Both the position numbers and the translations under genes were made by a program. This document shows positions 1 to 13,283 of a stretch of 64,000 bases of DNA, piece by piece. Origin of the DNA: Escherichia coli (lineage in GTDB: Bacteria > Pseudomonadota > Gammaproteobacteria > Enterobacterales > Enterobacteriaceae). Location: the NCBI RefSeq assembly GCF_048403405.1, contig NZ_CP183131.1; one strand, given 5' to 3'. The notes under the pieces are model-generated. The model was given only the letters and a program-made list of their open reading frames with translations, ran no database searches and was not told the origin of the DNA. Position 1 is the first letter of the stretch. Every line of letters starts with the position of its first letter.

Positions 1-269
1 TGCAAGGTATCCTCCTGAGGGAAATGTGTCAGGAAGAAATCTATGACCCTTGACGGCGTATGTCAATCAATTCGGAAGGCAACTCTATTCTGACGATTTA
101 GCGCCGGATGGTCTGACGCCAAGTTAGGGTATAGCCTAGATTGACATGCGCGATGCAACCCTTAACTTGCTTGCACCTATCGTTTCCATGCTAGCTTTAT
201 CGTAACGCTCAAGAAATTGGGCTTAATGCCGAAAACAATAAAATAAAACAGCCAACCCTTGAGGTTCTT

Positions 270-806
270 ATGCGCCAGAATTTACCAGTGACGGGTCGAA
301 ACTTAGAACTCCCAAAAGATGCCAATATTCTTTCGACTACCTCCCCTCAAAGCCATATCACGTACGTTAATCCTGACTTCATTAAAATCAGTGGTTTCAC
401 TGAGGAAGAACTATTAGGCCAGCCTCACAACATCGTAAGACACCCAGATATGCCGCCTGCTGCATTTGAGCATATGTGGAGTACATTAAAATCTGGCCGC
501 TCATGGATGGGGCTAGTAAAAAATCGCTGTAAAAATGGCGACCACTATTGGGTAAGTGCTTATGTAACGCCAATAGCTAAGAATGGTTCGATTGTTGAAT
601 ACCAGTCTGTAAGGACCAAGCCTGAACCTGAGCAGGTTTTGGCTGCGGAAAAATTATATGCTCAATTGAGAAGCGGGAAGGCCGCGAGGCCGAAATTGGC
701 TGCTAGCTTTTCCGTGAAAATACTCTTGCTCATATGGGGTAGTATTATATCAAGCGCAATGGCTGCCGGCATGCTTACTGATACATCAATAAGCAGCTTA
801 TTGTTA
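270..806 (+). pseudogene. Aer-like PAS-domain chemoreceptor (MCP), 5' fragment; gene split by insertion at 806/807
   Basis: PAS region (ITYVNPDF..NIVRHPDMP..GDHYWV) is followed by a hydrophobic hairpin. The frame rejoins 4078..5118 exactly when 807-4077 is removed, restoring about 525 aa. Confidence 0.85.
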
Positions 807-873
807 CCAGGAATCAACGCCTTTACCCGCTGCCGGAGCCTCACCTCAATAGCACTCTCCGGCAGCCGTATTG

Positions 874-1971
874 TTACAGCGAATCAAACTGATAGCTGAC
901 CGATAGCCCAACGCCATAGTTACGGCCCGGCGCCGGTTCATAATAGCGTCCGTTGCTCTCGTTGACGATAACAGAGCCGACGTAGCGCTTATCAAACAGG
1001 TTATCAACGCGCGTATAGAGGTCGACGGTCCAGTTATCTAGCACATATTTATAGCCGGTATTCAGTGCCGTCACCGTATAGGCTGGAGCCTGCTCGCTAT
1101 TGGCATCGTTGACCTGAATATCGCTCATATAGCGGACTTCAGCGCCAGCGTACCATCCCTCTTCCGGCACCCAGCCAAAGGAGGCATAGGCGCTATTACG
1201 TGCAATCCCCGGGATCCGATTGCCGCTCTGAATAGCATCGCCGGCGTTTTCACGGTAGGTCGCATCCAGCAGCGTCCACGCCAGTTTGGCGCGCCAGGCG
1301 GGCGCAAATTGCTGATCCCATCCCAGTTCGACCCCGCGGCGGCGCGTCTTGCCCGCGTTCTGATAGGACGTACGGCCATTGTCGCTGGCGGCAACGACAA
1401 TTTCATTTTTCGTGTCCGTATTGAAGACGCTCAGGCTCGCCATCCCGGTGCCCACCTGCCATTTACTGCCTGCTTCAACGGTGGTGTTAGTGGCCGGTTG
1501 CAGAGCAAAGTTAAGCCCGGACTGACCATCGGGACGATAGGACAGCTCGTTAATGGTCGGCGTTTCAAATCCCCTCCCGGCAGAGAGGTAAACGTTCCAC
1601 TGCGGCGTCATGGCATACTTCAGCGCTGCCGCCGGAAGCCACTTGTGATAGCTCGCTTCGCCGCTATCATCACCATTTTTACCTACAACATAACGATCGT
1701 TGGAATCAAACCATACCGAGCTATAGCGCGCCCCGGCGTCCAGCCCCAGGGCTGAGGTGAGCTGCCAGTGCGTTTGAATGTAGGGATCGAGGTTCCACAT
1801 CAGGTTACGTTCGTTACGTCGCATATCACCTTTGGTGCCGAGATCGTAAACGCCGTTCTGATAAACAAAGTTCTCATAGCCTTTGCGCTGTTCGGTCATC
1901 GCCTCGTAATCAAGGCCGGTGGTGATGGCGTAAGGGATAAAACCGCTGTCATCGTGGTGTGTCCAGCGCGT
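874..1971 (-). pseudogene. TonB-dependent siderophore receptor, C-terminal ~365 codons only (IroN-like fragment)
   Basis: Beta-barrel C-terminal region ends in ..GLSVSYQF. The frame stays open up to the IS903 IR at 1972. There is no plug domain or TonB box. Confidence 0.8.
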
Positions 1972-3028
1972 GGCTTTGTTGAATAAATCAGATTTCGGGT
2001 AAGTCTCCCCCGTAGCGGGTTGTGTTTTCAGGCAATACGCACGCTTTCAGGCATACCTGCTTTCGTCATTTTGTTCAGCGCTCGTACCAGGGCCATAGCC
2101 TCCGCAACCTGACCATCGTAGTCACGCAGCGTCAGTGAACCCCCGAACAGCTGTTTTACCCGGTACATCGCCGTTTCCGCTATCGAGCGACGGTTGTAAT
2201 CTGTTGTCCATTTCCACCGCGCATTACTCCCGGTCATTCGCTGATTAGCCACTGCACGGTTACGGTCTGCATATTCACCGGGCCAGTAACCCGCACCTTT
2301 TCGGGGCGGGATAAGCGCGCTGATTTTCTTACGCCGCAGTTCATCGTGACAGAGCCGGGTATCGTAAGCTCCATCGGCGGCGGCTGACCTGATTTTCCGG
2401 TGGGTTTGCCGGATTAACCCGGGGAAGGCCTCTGAGTCCGTAACGTTGTTCAGCGACAGGTCAGCGCAGATGATTTCATGTGTTTTACTGTCAACTGCCA
2501 GATGCAGCTTACGCCATATACGACGGCGTTCCTGGCCATGCTTTTTGACTTTCCACTCGCCTTCACCGAAGACCTTCAGCCCGGTGGAATCAATTACCAG
2601 GTGTGCGATTTCACCCCGGGTGGGCGTTTTGAAACTGATATTAACCGACTTTGCCCGCCTGCTGACACAGCTGTAATCCGGGCAGCGTAGCGGAACGTTC
2701 ATCAGAGAAAAAATGGAATCAATAAAGCCCTGCGCAGCGCGCAGGGTCAGCCTGAATACGCGTTTAATGACCAGCACAGTCGTGATGGCAAGGTCAGAAT
2801 AGCGCTGAGGTCTGCCTCGTGAAGAAGGTGTTGCTGACTCATACCAGGCCTGAATAGCTTCATCATCCAGCCAGAAAGTTATGGAGCCACGGTTGATGAG
2901 GGCTTTATTGTAGGTGGGCCAGTTGGTGATTTTGAACTTTTGCTTTGCCACGGAACGGTCTGCGTTGTCGGGAAGATACGTGATCTGATCCTTCAACTCA
3001 GCAAAAGTTCGATTTATTCAACAAAACC
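1972..3028 (-). mobile_element. IS903-like insertion sequence (IS5 family), 1057 bp
   Basis: 18-bp terminal IRs: GGCTTTGTTGAATAAATC at 1972-1989 and GGTTTTGTTGAATAAATC (revcomp) at 3011-3028. The 9-bp flanks differ (CCAGCGCGT vs TTTTTCTGG), so there is no TSD. Confidence 0.92.
2028..2951 (-). CDS. IS903 transposase (307 aa, GTG start)
   Basis: The sequence VAKQKFKITNWPTYNKALINRGS.. matches the IS903/IS102 transposase as I remember it. The ORF-track start at 2996 is an upstream in-frame extension. Confidence 0.9.
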   Translation of the reverse strand: MAKQKFKITNWPTYNKALINRGSITFWLDDEAIQAWYESATPSSRGRPQRYSDLAITTVLVIKRVFRLTLRAAQGFIDSIFSLMNVPLRCPDYSCVSRRAKSVNISFKTPTRGEIAHLVIDSTGLKVFGEGEWKVKKHGQERRRIWRKLHLAVDSKTHEIICADLSLNNVTDSEAFPGLIRQTHRKIRSAAADGAYDTRLCHDELRRKKISALIPPRKGAGYWPGEYADRNRAVANQRMTGSNARWKWTTDYNRRSIAETAMYRVKQLFGGSLTLRDYDGQVAEAMALVRALNKMTKAGMPESVRIA

Positions 3029-3886
3029 TTTTTCTGGTTTCAGTACGCGAGATACGACAAATCTTCTGTCTTTTTCCCATTTAACTAATTTTGTATACAG
3101 TTCTGTAGTTTCTCTACCTTCTTCTCCTTTAACGAATACAATTGATGAATTCGTTGCTTGTGAGGTGAGTGTAGAATAACTTTTGGCTTTAATTAAATAT
3201 TTGCATCCAAGAGATTCTATCGTTTCGATAATTTTTTCATCAAAGTAGCCACTATCCATTCGAAATAAAATTTCTAAATCGTCTGATTTGATGTTAGCAA
3301 CAATTTCTTTGATCATTTCCGCAGCACCGTTTGCAGTGTAAGTATTGCCACTTCTTACAAATCCGGTAACATATGCTTTTAATTCGTCGCAAAATGCAAA
3401 TTGGATATTGTAGCATCGGTTTCCCAGTTTCTTAGGATTATATCCTTTTGACGCACCTTCTTGATGACCTTCTACGTTAATTACACTACTATCAATATCA
3501 ATCGTAATGGATGTCAATTTACTTTTAGTGAGCAGTTTTTTAAAGACTTTAAAATTAATGTCTCTAAACATTTGGGTTGTCTTGAAGTTGAAGTTTCCTA
3601 GAAACCGTGACACTGTTTCAGGTTCTTTTACGGAAATATCAAACTCGTTGACGAGGGGATCATTTTGAAGTAGCTTTAGACGTTCTAACTTATCAATGCC
3701 AATGAAGTGACCGCAGAGCATGGTCTTTATATGATTCATCTTGATTTTATTTGTTGAGTCATTATCAAATACGAGGTCATTTTCAATAAAATCAAAAATC
3801 CCATTGCTTTTTGCATTCTCAAGGAGCAGAAAAAGACCTGCATTTGATGTTAGATTCTTAGCTTTGAAATCAATTTTATTAATCAT
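3029..3886 (-). pseudogene. ISEcp1 transposase (IS1380 family), truncated after codon 286 by IS903
   Basis: MINKIDFKAKNLTSNAGLFLLLENAKSNGIFDF.. is the ISEcp1 TnpA N-terminus. The frame runs into the IS903 IR and stops. Confidence 0.9.
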
Positions 3887-4058
3887 AATTAGAACCCCTT
3901 TTTACTACTTTTCTTACTATTATTTTACCATATATCGAGTCATAAAAGCTGATAATTTAACATATTTTTGAGCACTTTTCTTTCACCCAATGGGTGAAAG
4001 CTGAATTTCGAAGGAATGCATATTTATCAAGGCTTTGATTATGCTTTTTGAAGTACTG

Positions 4059-4072
4059 ACGTAGAATCTAGG
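4059..4072 (-). repeat. ISEcp1 left inverted repeat (IRL)
   Basis: acgtagaatctagg is the reverse complement of CCTAGATTCTACGT. The adjacent 100 bp match the ISEcp1 left end. Confidence 0.85.
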
Positions 4073-5118
4073 TGTTAGCCACTTTAATGTCAGGAAGCTT
4101 AAGCTCTGTTAGTGTTTTGGCTATTCTCTCTCCTCTTGGAAGACTGGTTGAAAGAGCCAGGAATATTTCCAATAACCCATTAAGTCAATCCCTCTACACT
4201 GGGCGCACCGATGAGTTTGGCCAAATAGAGTTTGCTTTACGAATGATGCAAGCTGAAACAGGCGCCATAGTAGGTCGCATAGGTGATGCATCAAATCGGC
4301 TTAGCGAACACACCCGAGGCCTACTAAAGGATATTGAGTCAAGCAATGTACTTACAGTTGAGCAGCAGGCAGAGACAGATCAAATAGCAACGGCAGTAAA
4401 CCAAATGGTGGCAAGCATTCAAGAGGTTGCGAGCAATGCACAGCATGCTGCAGATGCGGCCGGAAGAGCAGACACTGAGACGGCATCTGGCCAGCGTCTG
4501 GTAGCCCACACAAGCCAGTCAATCACTGCCCTTGAAGGTGAAATTAGGCAAGCCACTCAGGTTATTCATGAGCTTGAAGGTCAAAGTAACGAGATATCAA
4601 AAGTTCTTGACGTTATACGAGGGATCGCCGAGCAAACGAATTTGTTGGCACTCAACGCAGCAATTGAGGCCGCGCGTGCTGGTGAGCAGGGGCGTGGTTT
4701 TGCTGTTGTCGCCGATGAGGTTCGCAGTCTTGCTGCTCGCACACAGCAATCGACAACGGATATTCAAAGCATGATCAGCGCTCTACAAGAGCGAGCGCAA
4801 TCCGCTGTTACAGTCATGGAGCAAAGTAGTCGGCAAGCGCACACGAGTGTAGCTCACGCAGAGGAAGCAGCTACAGCTCTTGATGGAATTGGCCAACGCG
4901 TTAACGAAATTACCGACATGAACGCGCAAATAGCGACTGCGGTCGAGCAGCAGGGAGCAGTAAGTGAAGACATAAACCGCAGTATTATCAATATACGCGA
5001 TGCTGCTGATACCAATGTACAGACCGGGCAGAATAATTTGCAAAGTGCGAAATCTGTCGCTCAGTTAACTAGCGCTCTGAGCGAACTGGCAAAACAGTTT
5101 TGGGAAAAACGAGGATAA
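4073..5118 (+). pseudogene. Aer-like MCP, 3' fragment (TM2, HAMP, methyl-accepting signalling domain)
   Basis: Highly conserved MCP hairpin tip ([35 protein letters not shown]). Continues the frame of 270..806. Confidence 0.88.
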
Positions 5119-5138
5119 CGCTTTTCAGTATCTCGACA

Positions 5139-5172
5139 GGGATAACTTACTTTACCATCGGTTATCCCTTTT
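5139..5172 (+). terminator. rho-independent terminator of the chemoreceptor gene
   Basis: GGGATAAC-N14-GTTATCCC followed by TTTT, 20 nt after the stop codon. Confidence 0.7.
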
Positions 5173-5265
5173 AGCCGCACAAATTTTAGCCATGGCTTTT
5201 CAGGAAGTCAGGGCTATCAGAATGGCCTTAGAAAGCCTAGTCAAAGAGCTGTCACGAGAACACCG

Positions 5266-6180
5266 TTAGCTTAGCGTACGATTTTTTCCGAATTCTGCGG
5301 TTCCCCCTCCAGGGAAGGATTCGATAGTGACTCCACCGAAGGTGCCAAGGATTTCCGATGCCGCTTTATCAGATCGAGTTTTGCGTTGTTCTGAGGCGTC
5401 AAAGTTACGAAGCAATTTGAGCTGAACATCCTTATCCTGGAGCACGATCAGGGGCATTGGCGCGGTAACGGTTTTGAGTACCCCTGCGGCCATGACGTTT
5501 GCCACCGGTTGAACCTTTACTTCCCTTCGCTCCCGGAGATAAGGCTCCGGGGTGCTGGCGATCTTCTGGATAAGCTGCTCCAGGGGAAGTTGATAGTCTG
5601 GCCCAGATCGCTCCAGCTCCTCTCTGATGCGTTGCAAAAGCTCCTCTTTTACGGGCTTCTTCAAGGAGTCCTTCCGTTGCCAGGTGAAGCGGATAGAGTC
5701 GATGTCGCCATTGGTATAGCACCGAATTTGTCTGTAAAGGTGGAGAGTCATGACACCAGGGCAGTCCGCTCGAAGTGCTTCAAACCTCTCTTGCCTGGTG
5801 GGGTACGTCGAGATAATGAACTCCTCGATACCAGCTTTGGCCGCGTTGATGCGTTCAACCGTCGCCGCAATTTCGTCAGCTACACCAATCCTGGAAGGGG
5901 AGAACCAGAGTACCCCCACGGTGCGCCTGGCAGACTTCTGCGAATAGTCTGGGTTGATGTGAAGATCTCTGTAGCTGTGCGCTGCCAGCTCAAGAGCTTC
6001 GCGCCCAGTTTGTTCAGTTACGACAATCTTGTTGACGGGCTCGTTCTCCATTCCTTTTCCGGTAGGAGGGATGGCCGCAACTTTTGCGTACCGTGGCGGT
6101 AGTCGTTTGATAAGAGAGGACAGGTTCGTTAAGTCGCGGCACATGGCCGAGAATTGTTCTGATATGAAGTTTTTAGCCAT
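5266..6180 (-). CDS. tus: Tus-like DNA replication terminus site-binding protein
   Basis: Similar to E. coli Tus over its length, e.g. VKVQPVANV..TAPMPLIVL vs VKVQPIARV..CPTPLIALI, and ..GVLWF../..LHLYR.. blocks. Confidence 0.8.
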   Translation of the reverse strand: MAKNFISEQFSAMCRDLTNLSSLIKRLPPRYAKVAAIPPTGKGMENEPVNKIVVTEQTGREALELAAHSYRDLHINPDYSQKSARRTVGVLWFSPSRIGVADEIAATVERINAAKAGIEEFIISTYPTRQERFEALRADCPGVMTLHLYRQIRCYTNGDIDSIRFTWQRKDSLKKPVKEELLQRIREELERSGPDYQLPLEQLIQKIASTPEPYLRERREVKVQPVANVMAAGVLKTVTAPMPLIVLQDKDVQLKLLRNFDASEQRKTRSDKAASEILGTFGGVTIESFPGGGTAEFGKNRTLS

Positions 6181-7866: not shown

Positions 7867-8877
7867 TTAATCCGCTATATCGAGGCGTTGGCTCGCTCTC
7901 TTCAAACGCTCATCGCCGCGTCTGTCATATTTCTGGGTAGTTGCAATGCTTGAGTGGCCCATTGCGTCCTTCACGGTCACAATATCCTCACCGTTATCCA
8001 GCATCGAGGAGGCAAAGGTGCGTCGCAGGTCATGGGGCGCAAACATCTCCAGACCGGCTTCAACTCTTCTGGTCTCCAAGATGTGGTAGATGGCCTGATC
8101 CGACATCCGCTCTCCAGTCACATCATCAAACCGCCTGATCCTCGGGAATAAAGGCCCTTCATGCGTTCCTCGAACCTCTTCAACCCACTTATCCAGTCTT
8201 TTCCATGCGCCACCAGGCACATACGCCATTCTCTCTTTGTTGCCCTTGCCAAGAACCTTGAGAGCGCGGTCCTTGTAGATCATGCTTCCCATGTCCAGCG
8301 CAACGATTTCCGAGCGGCGCAAGCCACACCCGAGGAGCACCCCGAGAATGGCCGCATCCCGAAGCCCTTTGGCGCTTGAATCACTTTCACATGTGAAAAA
8401 GAGGCTGCGAATCTCATGGCGTTCAAGTGCCCGCCCTTTAGGAAGTCGAGATCCACGTACTGAACGGACTTGCTTAATGTGCTGGAAGCTATCCGTATCA
8501 ATTTGCTTCATCGTCCAGGCTTCAAGAGCCACCCCTTTGAGCGCTGACAGGTAGGTGTTGATCGTTGCCGGAGCCTTCCCTGCATCCCCCAGCATTTCCA
8601 GCACCGCCAATATGTGGTGCCGCCTCATTGAGCTCCATGCACAGTCACGAAGGTTCTGAAACCCGATCATCTTGGCGACAATGTTGAGGAATGAGCTCAT
8701 GGTCTGCCTGCTTCGCTTTGACCCGAGGCTCACCAGATAGGCGACGGCGGGGTTGTCCTGGATGTTCCGGAGCGAGCTCGATGACGGCAACAGTTCACCG
8801 CGAATGCTTTGTTCTGCCGGAACATTTACTTTCGCATGTGAAACTAGCTCTTCCTTGTCATTGTTTGTGTCGTGCAA
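7867..8877 (-). CDS. int: tyrosine recombinase / integrase
   Basis: C-terminal catalytic motifs HDLRRTFAS and GHSSIATTQKY. Confidence 0.88.
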   Translation of the reverse strand: MHDTNNDKEELVSHAKVNVPAEQSIRGELLPSSSSLRNIQDNPAVAYLVSLGSKRSRQTMSSFLNIVAKMIGFQNLRDCAWSSMRRHHILAVLEMLGDAGKAPATINTYLSALKGVALEAWTMKQIDTDSFQHIKQVRSVRGSRLPKGRALERHEIRSLFFTCESDSSAKGLRDAAILGVLLGCGLRRSEIVALDMGSMIYKDRALKVLGKGNKERMAYVPGGAWKRLDKWVEEVRGTHEGPLFPRIRRFDDVTGERMSDQAIYHILETRRVEAGLEMFAPHDLRRTFASSMLDNGEDIVTVKDAMGHSSIATTQKYDRRGDERLKRASQRLDIAD

Positions 8878-8879
8878 AG

Positions 8880-9416
8880 TTACCTCCTAAGCCCGACCGC
8901 AACGAGAAGAAAATCCCATATTTTGAGGTGAAGAGGTAGTTCCTCCTCCATATGTTGCGTTTCGTAGCTTTGCATCAGTGGTTCAAACTTGGTTGGATTG
9001 CACAGCAATTCGTAAACTGTTCGGTTGGGCTTGGTGATCGGCTTATTCGGAGTGAATCCATGTTTGTTCTGGAGGTACAGCGCTACCGCGCCACTTCTGG
9101 ATTCTCCGTAATAGCAATGAACGAAGATCTGATCGATACCGCTACCAACCAATCCATCCAGGAAGGTGGACAGCTTTTCAGCCTGGGATGAGTCAATGTA
9201 AGAGGCGTAATTCATCCGGAACGCTGCCTTCATCGTGTGGATGGTGTTCTCAGAATAGCCGCCGTCATAGAAGCTATCGCGGTACAACTGCCCCCACTGT
9301 CCGAGAGCGGCAGGGGACTTGTCTGGGTCAGTTATGGAGATCATGGCCGCACCGGGAACCGGCTCCAGTCTTTCGGCCTCCGCTTGACTAATGAAAAAGA
9401 CTTTTTTGCTAAGCAT
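8880..9416 (-). CDS. protein-tyrosine/dual-specificity phosphatase-like protein
   Basis: CX5R(S) P-loop signature VHCYYGESRSG. Confidence 0.6.
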   Translation of the reverse strand: MLSKKVFFISQAEAERLEPVPGAAMISITDPDKSPAALGQWGQLYRDSFYDGGYSENTIHTMKAAFRMNYASYIDSSQAEKLSTFLDGLVGSGIDQIFVHCYYGESRSGAVALYLQNKHGFTPNKPITKPNRTVYELLCNPTKFEPLMQSYETQHMEEELPLHLKIWDFLLVAVGLRR

Positions 9417-9696
9417 GTCCCATCATCCCCTTACAAGGATGTGTTGCGAGTAGCTCACGCGCCTGACTTTGCCCCTCTTGAGTATCTACAGGAGCGGTCG
9501 TATACACACCTCCATGCCGCAAGTCCACAATACTGGTCCGACAGCAAGAACCTACGTTCTGAACTTTATTGTCCGAATCCAAACCAGCAAAAGTATGGCA
9601 CGGTCCAGGGAATGGTTTCCTGCAAATAGAGCAGCGCTCAAAGTTCTTATCGAGGATTCTCTTTAAAACTTTCTCAAATTTGTTTTTGTTTAACAT
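9409..9696 (-). CDS. small Cys-rich (zinc-ribbon-like) protein
   Basis: CSIC..PGPC and SCC motifs. ATG at 9696 is preceded by GGAGAA. The 3' end overlaps the next gene. Confidence 0.55.
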   Translation of the reverse strand: MLNKNKFEKVLKRILDKNFERCSICRKPFPGPCHTFAGLDSDNKVQNVGSCCRTSIVDLRHGGVYTTAPVDTQEGQSQARELLATHPCKGMMGHA

Positions 9697-9714
9697 CGAG
9701 TTCTCCACACAAAG

Positions 9715-10035
9715 TTACTGGCCGAGCATCCCAGCCAAGGTGGTCTGCTGGCCTTCGCTACAAGGTGCAAATCCGGCAAAAGCACCGGCATTAACCTTGA
9801 GCTCATCAAAGCGTCCATCGGTGTCCCGGTAGTACACCTTACGTTTTCCAATTCCACCTTCGAGGTTTGCGGCCAACCAGGCGATCACTGCATCAGCATC
9901 GTTCGTAACTGATGCTCCCTGATCCAGATCGATAAGTACCAGGTGGGTGTCCGTCTGGAGTGCCACTTCAAAGGTCGCTCTTACATCAAAAATCACTGGT
10001 CGCGCTCCTTGTAAAAAGTGGGCATTCAGCACCAC
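9715..10035 (-). CDS. hypothetical protein (106 aa, GTG start)
   Basis: ORF with an AGGATAGG SD-like sequence upstream. Divergent from the palindromic operator at 10115. Confidence 0.5.
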   Translation of the reverse strand: MVLNAHFLQGARPVIFDVRATFEVALQTDTHLVLIDLDQGASVTNDADAVIAWLAANLEGGIGKRKVYYRDTDGRFDELKVNAGAFAGFAPCSEGQQTTLAGMLGQ

Positions 10036-12033: not shown

Positions 12034-13228
<1,195 letters not shown>

Positions 13229-13283
13229 CTAACGGAAATCCAAGCAGATATACTGCTCTATATTTTAAACCGGTTTTTTTCAT
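13229..13283 (-). pseudogene. small membrane protein, 5' part (interrupted by IS5)
   Basis: ATG at 13283 lies 4 nt after the stop of the immunity gene. See 11842..12033. Confidence 0.65.

Follow-up and report, generated by a model that had tools for sequence, protein, structure and literature searches.

The window analysed here is a stretch of 64,000 nucleotides of Escherichia coli DNA (assembly GCF_048403405.1, contig NZ_CP183131.1), and its positions 807-4072, read on the minus strand, are an ISEcp1 transposition unit that extends from the left inverted repeat (IRL) of ISEcp1 to a surrogate right end and interrupts a chemoreceptor-like gene. The unit consists of the 5′ 1,044 bp of ISEcp1 (3029-4072), a complete IS903B (1972-3028) and the 3′ fragment of a TonB-dependent receptor gene (874-1971), all on the minus strand, and no bla gene is present within 807-4072. 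The IRL, 14 bp of sequence CCTAGATTCTACGT at 4059-4072 on the minus strand, has its outer end at 4072. The surrogate (alternative) right end of ISEcp1, CCAGGAATCAACGC at 807-820 on the minus strand, was recognised by its likeness to the IRL, with which it agrees in 9 of 14 positions, and to the canonical right inverted repeat (IRR), with which it agrees in 8 of 14; nine or more matches to the IRL at a fixed position are expected by chance with P = 0.002. One copy of TGTTA flanks the unit on the left (802-806) and another on the right (4073-4077), and a single copy is found in the uninterrupted gene. An earlier note on this DNA had described a unit with these two ends and this 5-bp bracket, splitting a PAS-MCP gene cleanly with the halves in frame and containing ISEcp1 truncated at codon 286, a complete IS903-like element and the 3′ part of a TonB-dependent receptor gene, and each of these points was borne out.

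The interrupted gene is read on the plus strand and encodes a PAS-HAMP-MCP chemoreceptor-like protein. Based on the open reading frame (ORF), the domains and the empty site, codons 1-179 lie at 270-806 and codons 180-525 with the stop at 4078-5118, and excision of 807-4077 rejoins the two parts as a 525-amino-acid ORF with PAS, HAMP and MCPsignal domains. The gene is orfI/mcp of a Tn1721-family transposon. A Tn1721 mcp interrupted by ISEcp1B-blaCTX-M-27-IS903D-iroN, like that of pKP96, has been published (PMC5241659), and a backbone origin of the chemoreceptor gene was ruled out since mcp belongs to Tn1721. The same mcp adjoins a resolvase gene in both pKP96 (IncN) and pX39-8 (IncFII), and in pKP96 it also lies near a TnAs1/Tn1721-type transposase gene. 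The previous reading of an interrupted Aer-like chemoreceptor gene stands, with the correction that the gene is part of the transposon and not of the plasmid backbone.

The empty site was reconstructed by joining window positions 500-806 to 4078-4400 with one TGTTA and was counted in PLSDB at 80% or more of its length. At least 1,478 plasmids carried it, the inspected records as single pieces of 99.8-100% identity, and no Tn1721 mcp allele without TGTTA at the insertion point was encountered among the inspected records. Because the empty site with one TGTTA matches this many plasmids, the repeat is a true target-site duplication and not a chance occurrence. The earlier note had allowed for coincidental repeats and had suggested a check for an intact chemoreceptor gene on related plasmids; the uninterrupted gene does contain the junction with a single TGTTA. 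A complete bla-carrying unit fills the site in 52 complete E. coli genomes and in no fewer than 169 PLSDB records, and many plasmids have units with 100% identity to the one retained in the window. A literature search gave no paper that mentions TGTTA alongside ISEcp1 in such a setting. The left junction between mcp and the receptor fragment (806/807) occurred in 794 PLSDB records and the right junction between IRL and mcp (4072/4073) in 227, so that sequence at the left of the module has spread beyond the original insertion; the imbalance is likely due to ISEcp1 read-through units of larger size or to truncation of the module at its ISEcp1 end.

The ISEcp1 part retains exactly 286 codons of tnpA (3029-3886 on the minus strand, with the start at 3886), which run on into the IS903 inverted repeat as a fusion ORF of 290 amino acids (3014-3886) ending in the four codons GFVE. 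This remnant covers only profile positions 1-296 of 419 in the NCBIfam IS1380-family model, and its Pfam DDE_Tnp_1 match stops at position 132 of 200. Neither an intact 420-amino-acid IS1380-family transposase gene nor the canonical IRR ACGTGGAATTTAGG was found in the unit, the motif of the latter falling in the deleted stretch described below. Without the C-terminal third of its DDE domain the truncated transposase should be inactive, and no second copy of ISEcp1 or IS903 able to complement or recombine was found in the 64-kb window. The adjoining IS903B is complete at 1,057 bp, as judged from its inverted repeats, the family model and the annotation of matching records. Its 18-bp terminal inverted repeats agree at 17 of 18 positions, and its transposase ORF (2028-2996, minus strand) matches the IS5-family model NF033579 with 357 bits and is annotated as WP_013362812.1 (IS903B family) in records with identical or near-identical DNA here. 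A 9-bp duplication around this IS903B is absent, the two flanks being CCAGCGCGT and TTTTTCTGG; the IS903B of the parental unit likewise has none, and its absence is expected because both IS903B ends have been rearranged.

The receptor gene is cut by IS903B at 1971/1972, and 874-1971 encodes its last 365 residues, followed by a 67-bp downstream non-coding tail (807-873). Against the NCBIfam PqqU equivalog NF041535 the fragment scored 654 bits over profile positions 312-676, and it aligned end to end with residues 338-700 of the E. coli YncD/PqqU structures 6v81 and 9c4o in PDB (540 bits), with a further Pfam match to TonB_dep_Rec_b-barrel. Matches to siderophore receptors were far weaker, 50-118 bits in NCBIfam and 31-57 bits in PDB, and the fragment is therefore of pqqU/yncD type, encoding the C-terminal half of such a PQQ transporter. 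The identity with IroN, under which it is labelled in the literature, was rejected since the best family is PqqU and the best structures are YncD/PqqU; the literature yielded no paper that connects ISEcp1 or this unit with PqqU or YncD. The earlier note had also considered that the fragment might be native to this plasmid. This was ruled out, as the fragment is cargo inside a duplication-bounded unit that occurs on unrelated replicons (IncN, IncFII and IncC plasmids) and on chromosomes. Among GTDB species representatives no donor was found, the 100% matches being only to other copies of the mobile unit, and the closest chromosomal genes were those of Pseudocitrobacter faecalis and Enterobacteriaceae bacterium G50, with about 80% DNA and 90% protein identity. 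Two actinomycete assemblies, Kitasatospora arboriphila JCM 13002 (a 1,748-bp contig) and Streptomyces axinellae JCM 16373 (an 835-bp contig), matched the IS903B/receptor part with 98-100% identity, and these matches are most likely contamination of those reference assemblies.

By sequence identity, the parent of the unit is the published 4,797-bp ISEcp1-blaCTX-M(9 group)-IS903B-delta'iroN' transposition unit. The window was 100% identical to pX39-8 over 1-3028 and 3028-5307, the two halves lying 1,531 bp apart in pX39-8, and the same gap of 1,531 bp was found relative to pKP96, in which the missing stretch occupies positions 8330-9860 of locus L002. The deleted content comprises blaCTX-M-24/-14, the spacer, the canonical ISEcp1 IRR, visible in the deleted stretch of pKP96 as CCTAAATTCCACGT, and tnpA codons 287-420 (134 codons) with the stop. 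The outward promoter of ISEcp1 is known to lie in this region and is therefore lost as well. The ISEcp1-blaCTX-M-IS903-iroN layout named in the earlier note is thus the true parent, only its 'iroN' label giving way to a PqqU/YncD-like fragment; the bla gene and the 3′ end of ISEcp1 are missing as that note had claimed, and the parental unit and a bla-carrying unit at the same TGTTA site, which it had proposed to look for, were found in pKP96 (blaCTX-M-24) and pX39-8. At the deletion junction (3028-3029, with 1-bp ambiguity) the IRR tip of IS903B is fused to tnpA codon 286, so that the tip is followed by TTTTTCTGG; the microhomology at the breakpoint is 1 bp and uninformative.

The exact junction was not found as a contiguous match in PLSDB, complete E. 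coli genomes, GTDB representatives or JGI metagenomes. The PLSDB search returned only records with extra sequence between the halves, and two such records from the same context proved to be a single 159,072-bp plasmid listed with two accessions. A public gene-position index had no record of the 290-amino-acid fusion ORF when its exact product was looked up. The junction is a private deletion allele of a known structure; the element itself, the site it occupies and a derivative without bla on a plasmid of this type are already on public record. In unrelated resistance contexts, IS903B copies of 98.8-99.0% identity also interrupt ISEcp1 in the blaOXA-204 plasmid pKp4101 and in a blaCMY-6 plasmid, 76 bp and 213 bp respectively from the breakpoint of the window and in the same orientation, and the ISEcp1 stretch near the breakpoint may be a preferred IS903B target.

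The transposon carrying the unit ends at a 38-bp terminal inverted repeat (5270-5307, minus strand), at the outer end of which, 5307, the similarity to pX39-8 and pKP96 stops. Directly outside it lies TCCAG (5308-5312), the 5-bp duplication of the transposon in the IncC backbone, and since the same TCCAG is present at both transposon ends in pKP22-5, the composite transposon has transposed into this backbone. Positions 3092-64000 are colinear with pKP22-5 (NZ_CP142989.1, PLSDB replicon IncC) at 99.99-100% identity, save one IS5-family insertion, and from 5308 onwards the window is assignable to the IncC (A/C2) backbone. The Tn1721-family features in the window are the right inverted repeat, TCCAG, mcp and res; tnpR, tnpA and the left inverted repeat lie outside it. 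In the res region upstream of mcp (1-269), placed by alignment, the sequence from about 120 rightwards is identical to the IncC relatives and pKP96 and leftwards it diverges. Positions 1-119, a variant res, differ from the Tn1721/TnAs1 sequence of pKP22-5, pKPHS3 and pKP96 and are 100% identical to pX39-8 and at least 20 other plasmids. The switch at about 120 looks like a hybrid of two Tn1721-family transposons formed by res-site recombination.

Taken together, the region is very probably a non-functional remnant of the published ISEcp1-CTX-M unit, reached through insertion, arrival on IncC and an adjacent deletion by IS903B. In this course of events ISEcp1, using its IRL and the surrogate end, put the unit into codon 179 of orfI/mcp with duplication of TGTTA, as the ends and the empty site show, and that Tn1721-family transposon sits in the IncC backbone flanked by TCCAG, as the relatives show. 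Intramolecular transposition of the resident IS903B, acting from its IRR end, would then have deleted the adjacent sequence, the extent of the loss, 1,531 bp, being given by the comparison and the mechanism being one that we infer. The resulting locus would confer no resistance and its ISEcp1 transposase would be inactive, with IRL and surrogate end surviving. The deletion starts at the IRR terminus of IS903B, within 1 bp, and IS903 has been reported to generate adjacent deletions (PMC12670165; PMC11708052). Two other deletions in the same lineage are anchored at an IS903B tip. The TVGHCRE225 plasmid has the pKP22-5 form of the module with a deletion that begins at the IRR tip of the first IS903B and ends at position 58 within the second, and in pKPHS3 the IRL tip of IS903B is fused to mcp at window position 689, with 690-1971 deleted. 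On account of these three tip-anchored deletions and the reported activity of IS903, an IS903B-mediated adjacent deletion is favoured.

Other routes from the parent to the same product were weighed. The window might tentatively be derived from a rearranged form like that of pKP22-5 or TVGHCRE225, from which another 2,597 bp or 122 bp, respectively, would have been lost in a deletion anchored at the IRR. In favour of this, the backbone is nearly identical to that of pKP22-5, the second IS903B had inserted only 64 bp short of the breakpoint, and the searches made turned up no bla-less form besides TVGHCRE225. However, positions 1-119 of the window are like those of pX39-8-type transposons and unlike those of the IncC relatives, TVGHCRE225 is excluded as the direct ancestor by its IS26 at window position 330, and nothing in the end product distinguishes the routes. 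Unlikely, in our judgement, is a loss in two steps from the same parent, in which a second IS903B of the same orientation inserted in tnpA at the breakpoint and recombination between the copies left one IS903B without duplication. The recurrent insertion of IS903B in this ISEcp1 stretch speaks for it, the pKP22-5 copy 64 bp away having the 9-bp duplication GTATTTGTT and those of the blaOXA-204 and blaCMY-6 plasmids lying 76 bp and 213 bp away; the two IS903B copies of pKP22-5, the second of which sits in ISEcp1 inverted with respect to the first, are 100% identical, so that recombination would be traceless. No direct-repeat intermediate at the exact position was found in PLSDB or complete E. 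coli genomes, however, and two cases are hard to account for by recombination between IS903B copies: the TVGHCRE225 deletion, which ends at IS903B position 58, and that of pKPHS3, which reaches from the IRL tip into mcp without a second IS903B being seen there. Tip-anchored deletion, as these two cases attest, does occur in the lineage. That the junction is an assembly artefact, with collapse of an IS903B repeat in a plasmid still carrying blaCTX-M, is conceivable in that relatives carry two IS903B copies around bla, yet highly improbable, as the junction sequence adjoins no IS903B end in pKP22-5, pKP96 or pX39-8, none of the four IS903B flanks of pKP22-5 matching, and simple repeat collapse can therefore not create it.

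Several points nevertheless weigh against the adjacent-deletion account and the remnant it describes. The mechanism is beyond proof from one sequence, and a direct second IS903B at the breakpoint followed by recombination gives an identical product, in a part of ISEcp1 where IS903B inserts repeatedly. The junction is known from the assembled sequence alone, and the left end of the transposon lies outside the window. Finally, as IRL and surrogate end are retained, mobilisation in trans by an ISEcp1 transposase is possibly conceivable.

With respect to mobility, the remnant would move only passively, by way of the IncC plasmid, which is typed as conjugative in close relatives, or of the Tn1721-family element if the parts of it outside the window are intact, or perhaps through an ISEcp1 transposase provided in trans. 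The immobility claimed in the earlier note applies to autonomous ISEcp1 transposition, given the truncated transposase; it does not apply overall, as the remnant travels with the IncC plasmid. The wider idea that an intact ISEcp1 mobilises such remnants in trans, together with systematic IS903B-driven shedding, and perhaps recombinational re-acquisition, of blaCTX-M-9-group genes in clinical Klebsiella, is a speculation to which we give little credence. The practical meaning lies in a pitfall for typing: blaCTX-M can disappear unnoticed from IncC plasmids of this lineage while most of its mobile context stays in place, and screens targeting ISEcp1 or IS903 and the 'iroN' marker would suggest an extended-spectrum beta-lactamase module that is absent. 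The case adds one more instance of IS903B, and not ISEcp1 or IS26, reshaping this module, and the reassignment of 'iroN' to a pqqU/yncD fragment is a small annotation correction that hints at the intermediate host of the unit. It is otherwise the ordinary scar of a well-known resistance module, offering no new system and no new biology, and its practical value is modest.

Two further features of the backbone were noted. The right inverted repeat of the transposon lies within the 3′ end of a gene annotated as terminus-site-binding protein, and in pKP22-5 it stands between that gene and kfrA; the 'DNA replication terminus site-binding protein' ORF at 5266-6180 has its stop and last codons inside the Tn1721 inverted repeat, and its C-terminus was therefore created by the transposon insertion. 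Just upstream of an Rhs region, an IS5-family element of 1,195 bp (12035-13229) with a 326-amino-acid transposase (12102-13082) is flanked by CTAA and has no counterpart in pKP22-5 or the other listed IncC relatives.

Like classical IS903 adjacent deletions, the one in the window starts at the IS terminus, keeps the IS intact and shows no target duplication, although here the event is inferred from its product and not observed. The units of pKP96 (NC_011617), pX39-8 (NZ_CP023985) and the phage-plasmid SJ46, which carry blaCTX-M-24/-14/-27, have the IRL, surrogate end, TGTTA and mcp site of the window, and the retained sequence is 100% identical; in contrast to them the window lacks the 1,531 bp with bla, spacer and promoter, canonical IRR and tnpA codons 287-420. 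Within the one IncC lineage four IS903B-driven rearrangements were seen: a deletion on the IRL side (pKPHS3, L003 4906-6625), an inverted second copy with inversion of bla, a deletion on the IRR side into the second copy, and the deletion of the window. The Klebsiella pneumoniae IncC plasmid of TVGHCRE225 (NZ_CP023724.1 / NZ_AP018672.1) shares the IncC site and the unit and is also bla-less, but keeps 122 bp missing from the window (L001 8330-8451), made up of 64 bp of ISEcp1 and the terminal 58 bp of a second IS903B in inverted orientation, and IS26 cuts its mcp. Both pKP22-5 and pKPHS3 (NC_016839.1) have the backbone and the Tn1721-family insertion of the window, TCCAG having been checked in pKP22-5. 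Unlike the window, pKP22-5 still has blaCTX-M-14, which lies flipped between two IS903B copies of opposite orientation (L004 8340-10936), and pKPHS3 keeps ISEcp1 and bla and has lost delta-pqqU and mcp 690-806 by its IRL-side deletion.

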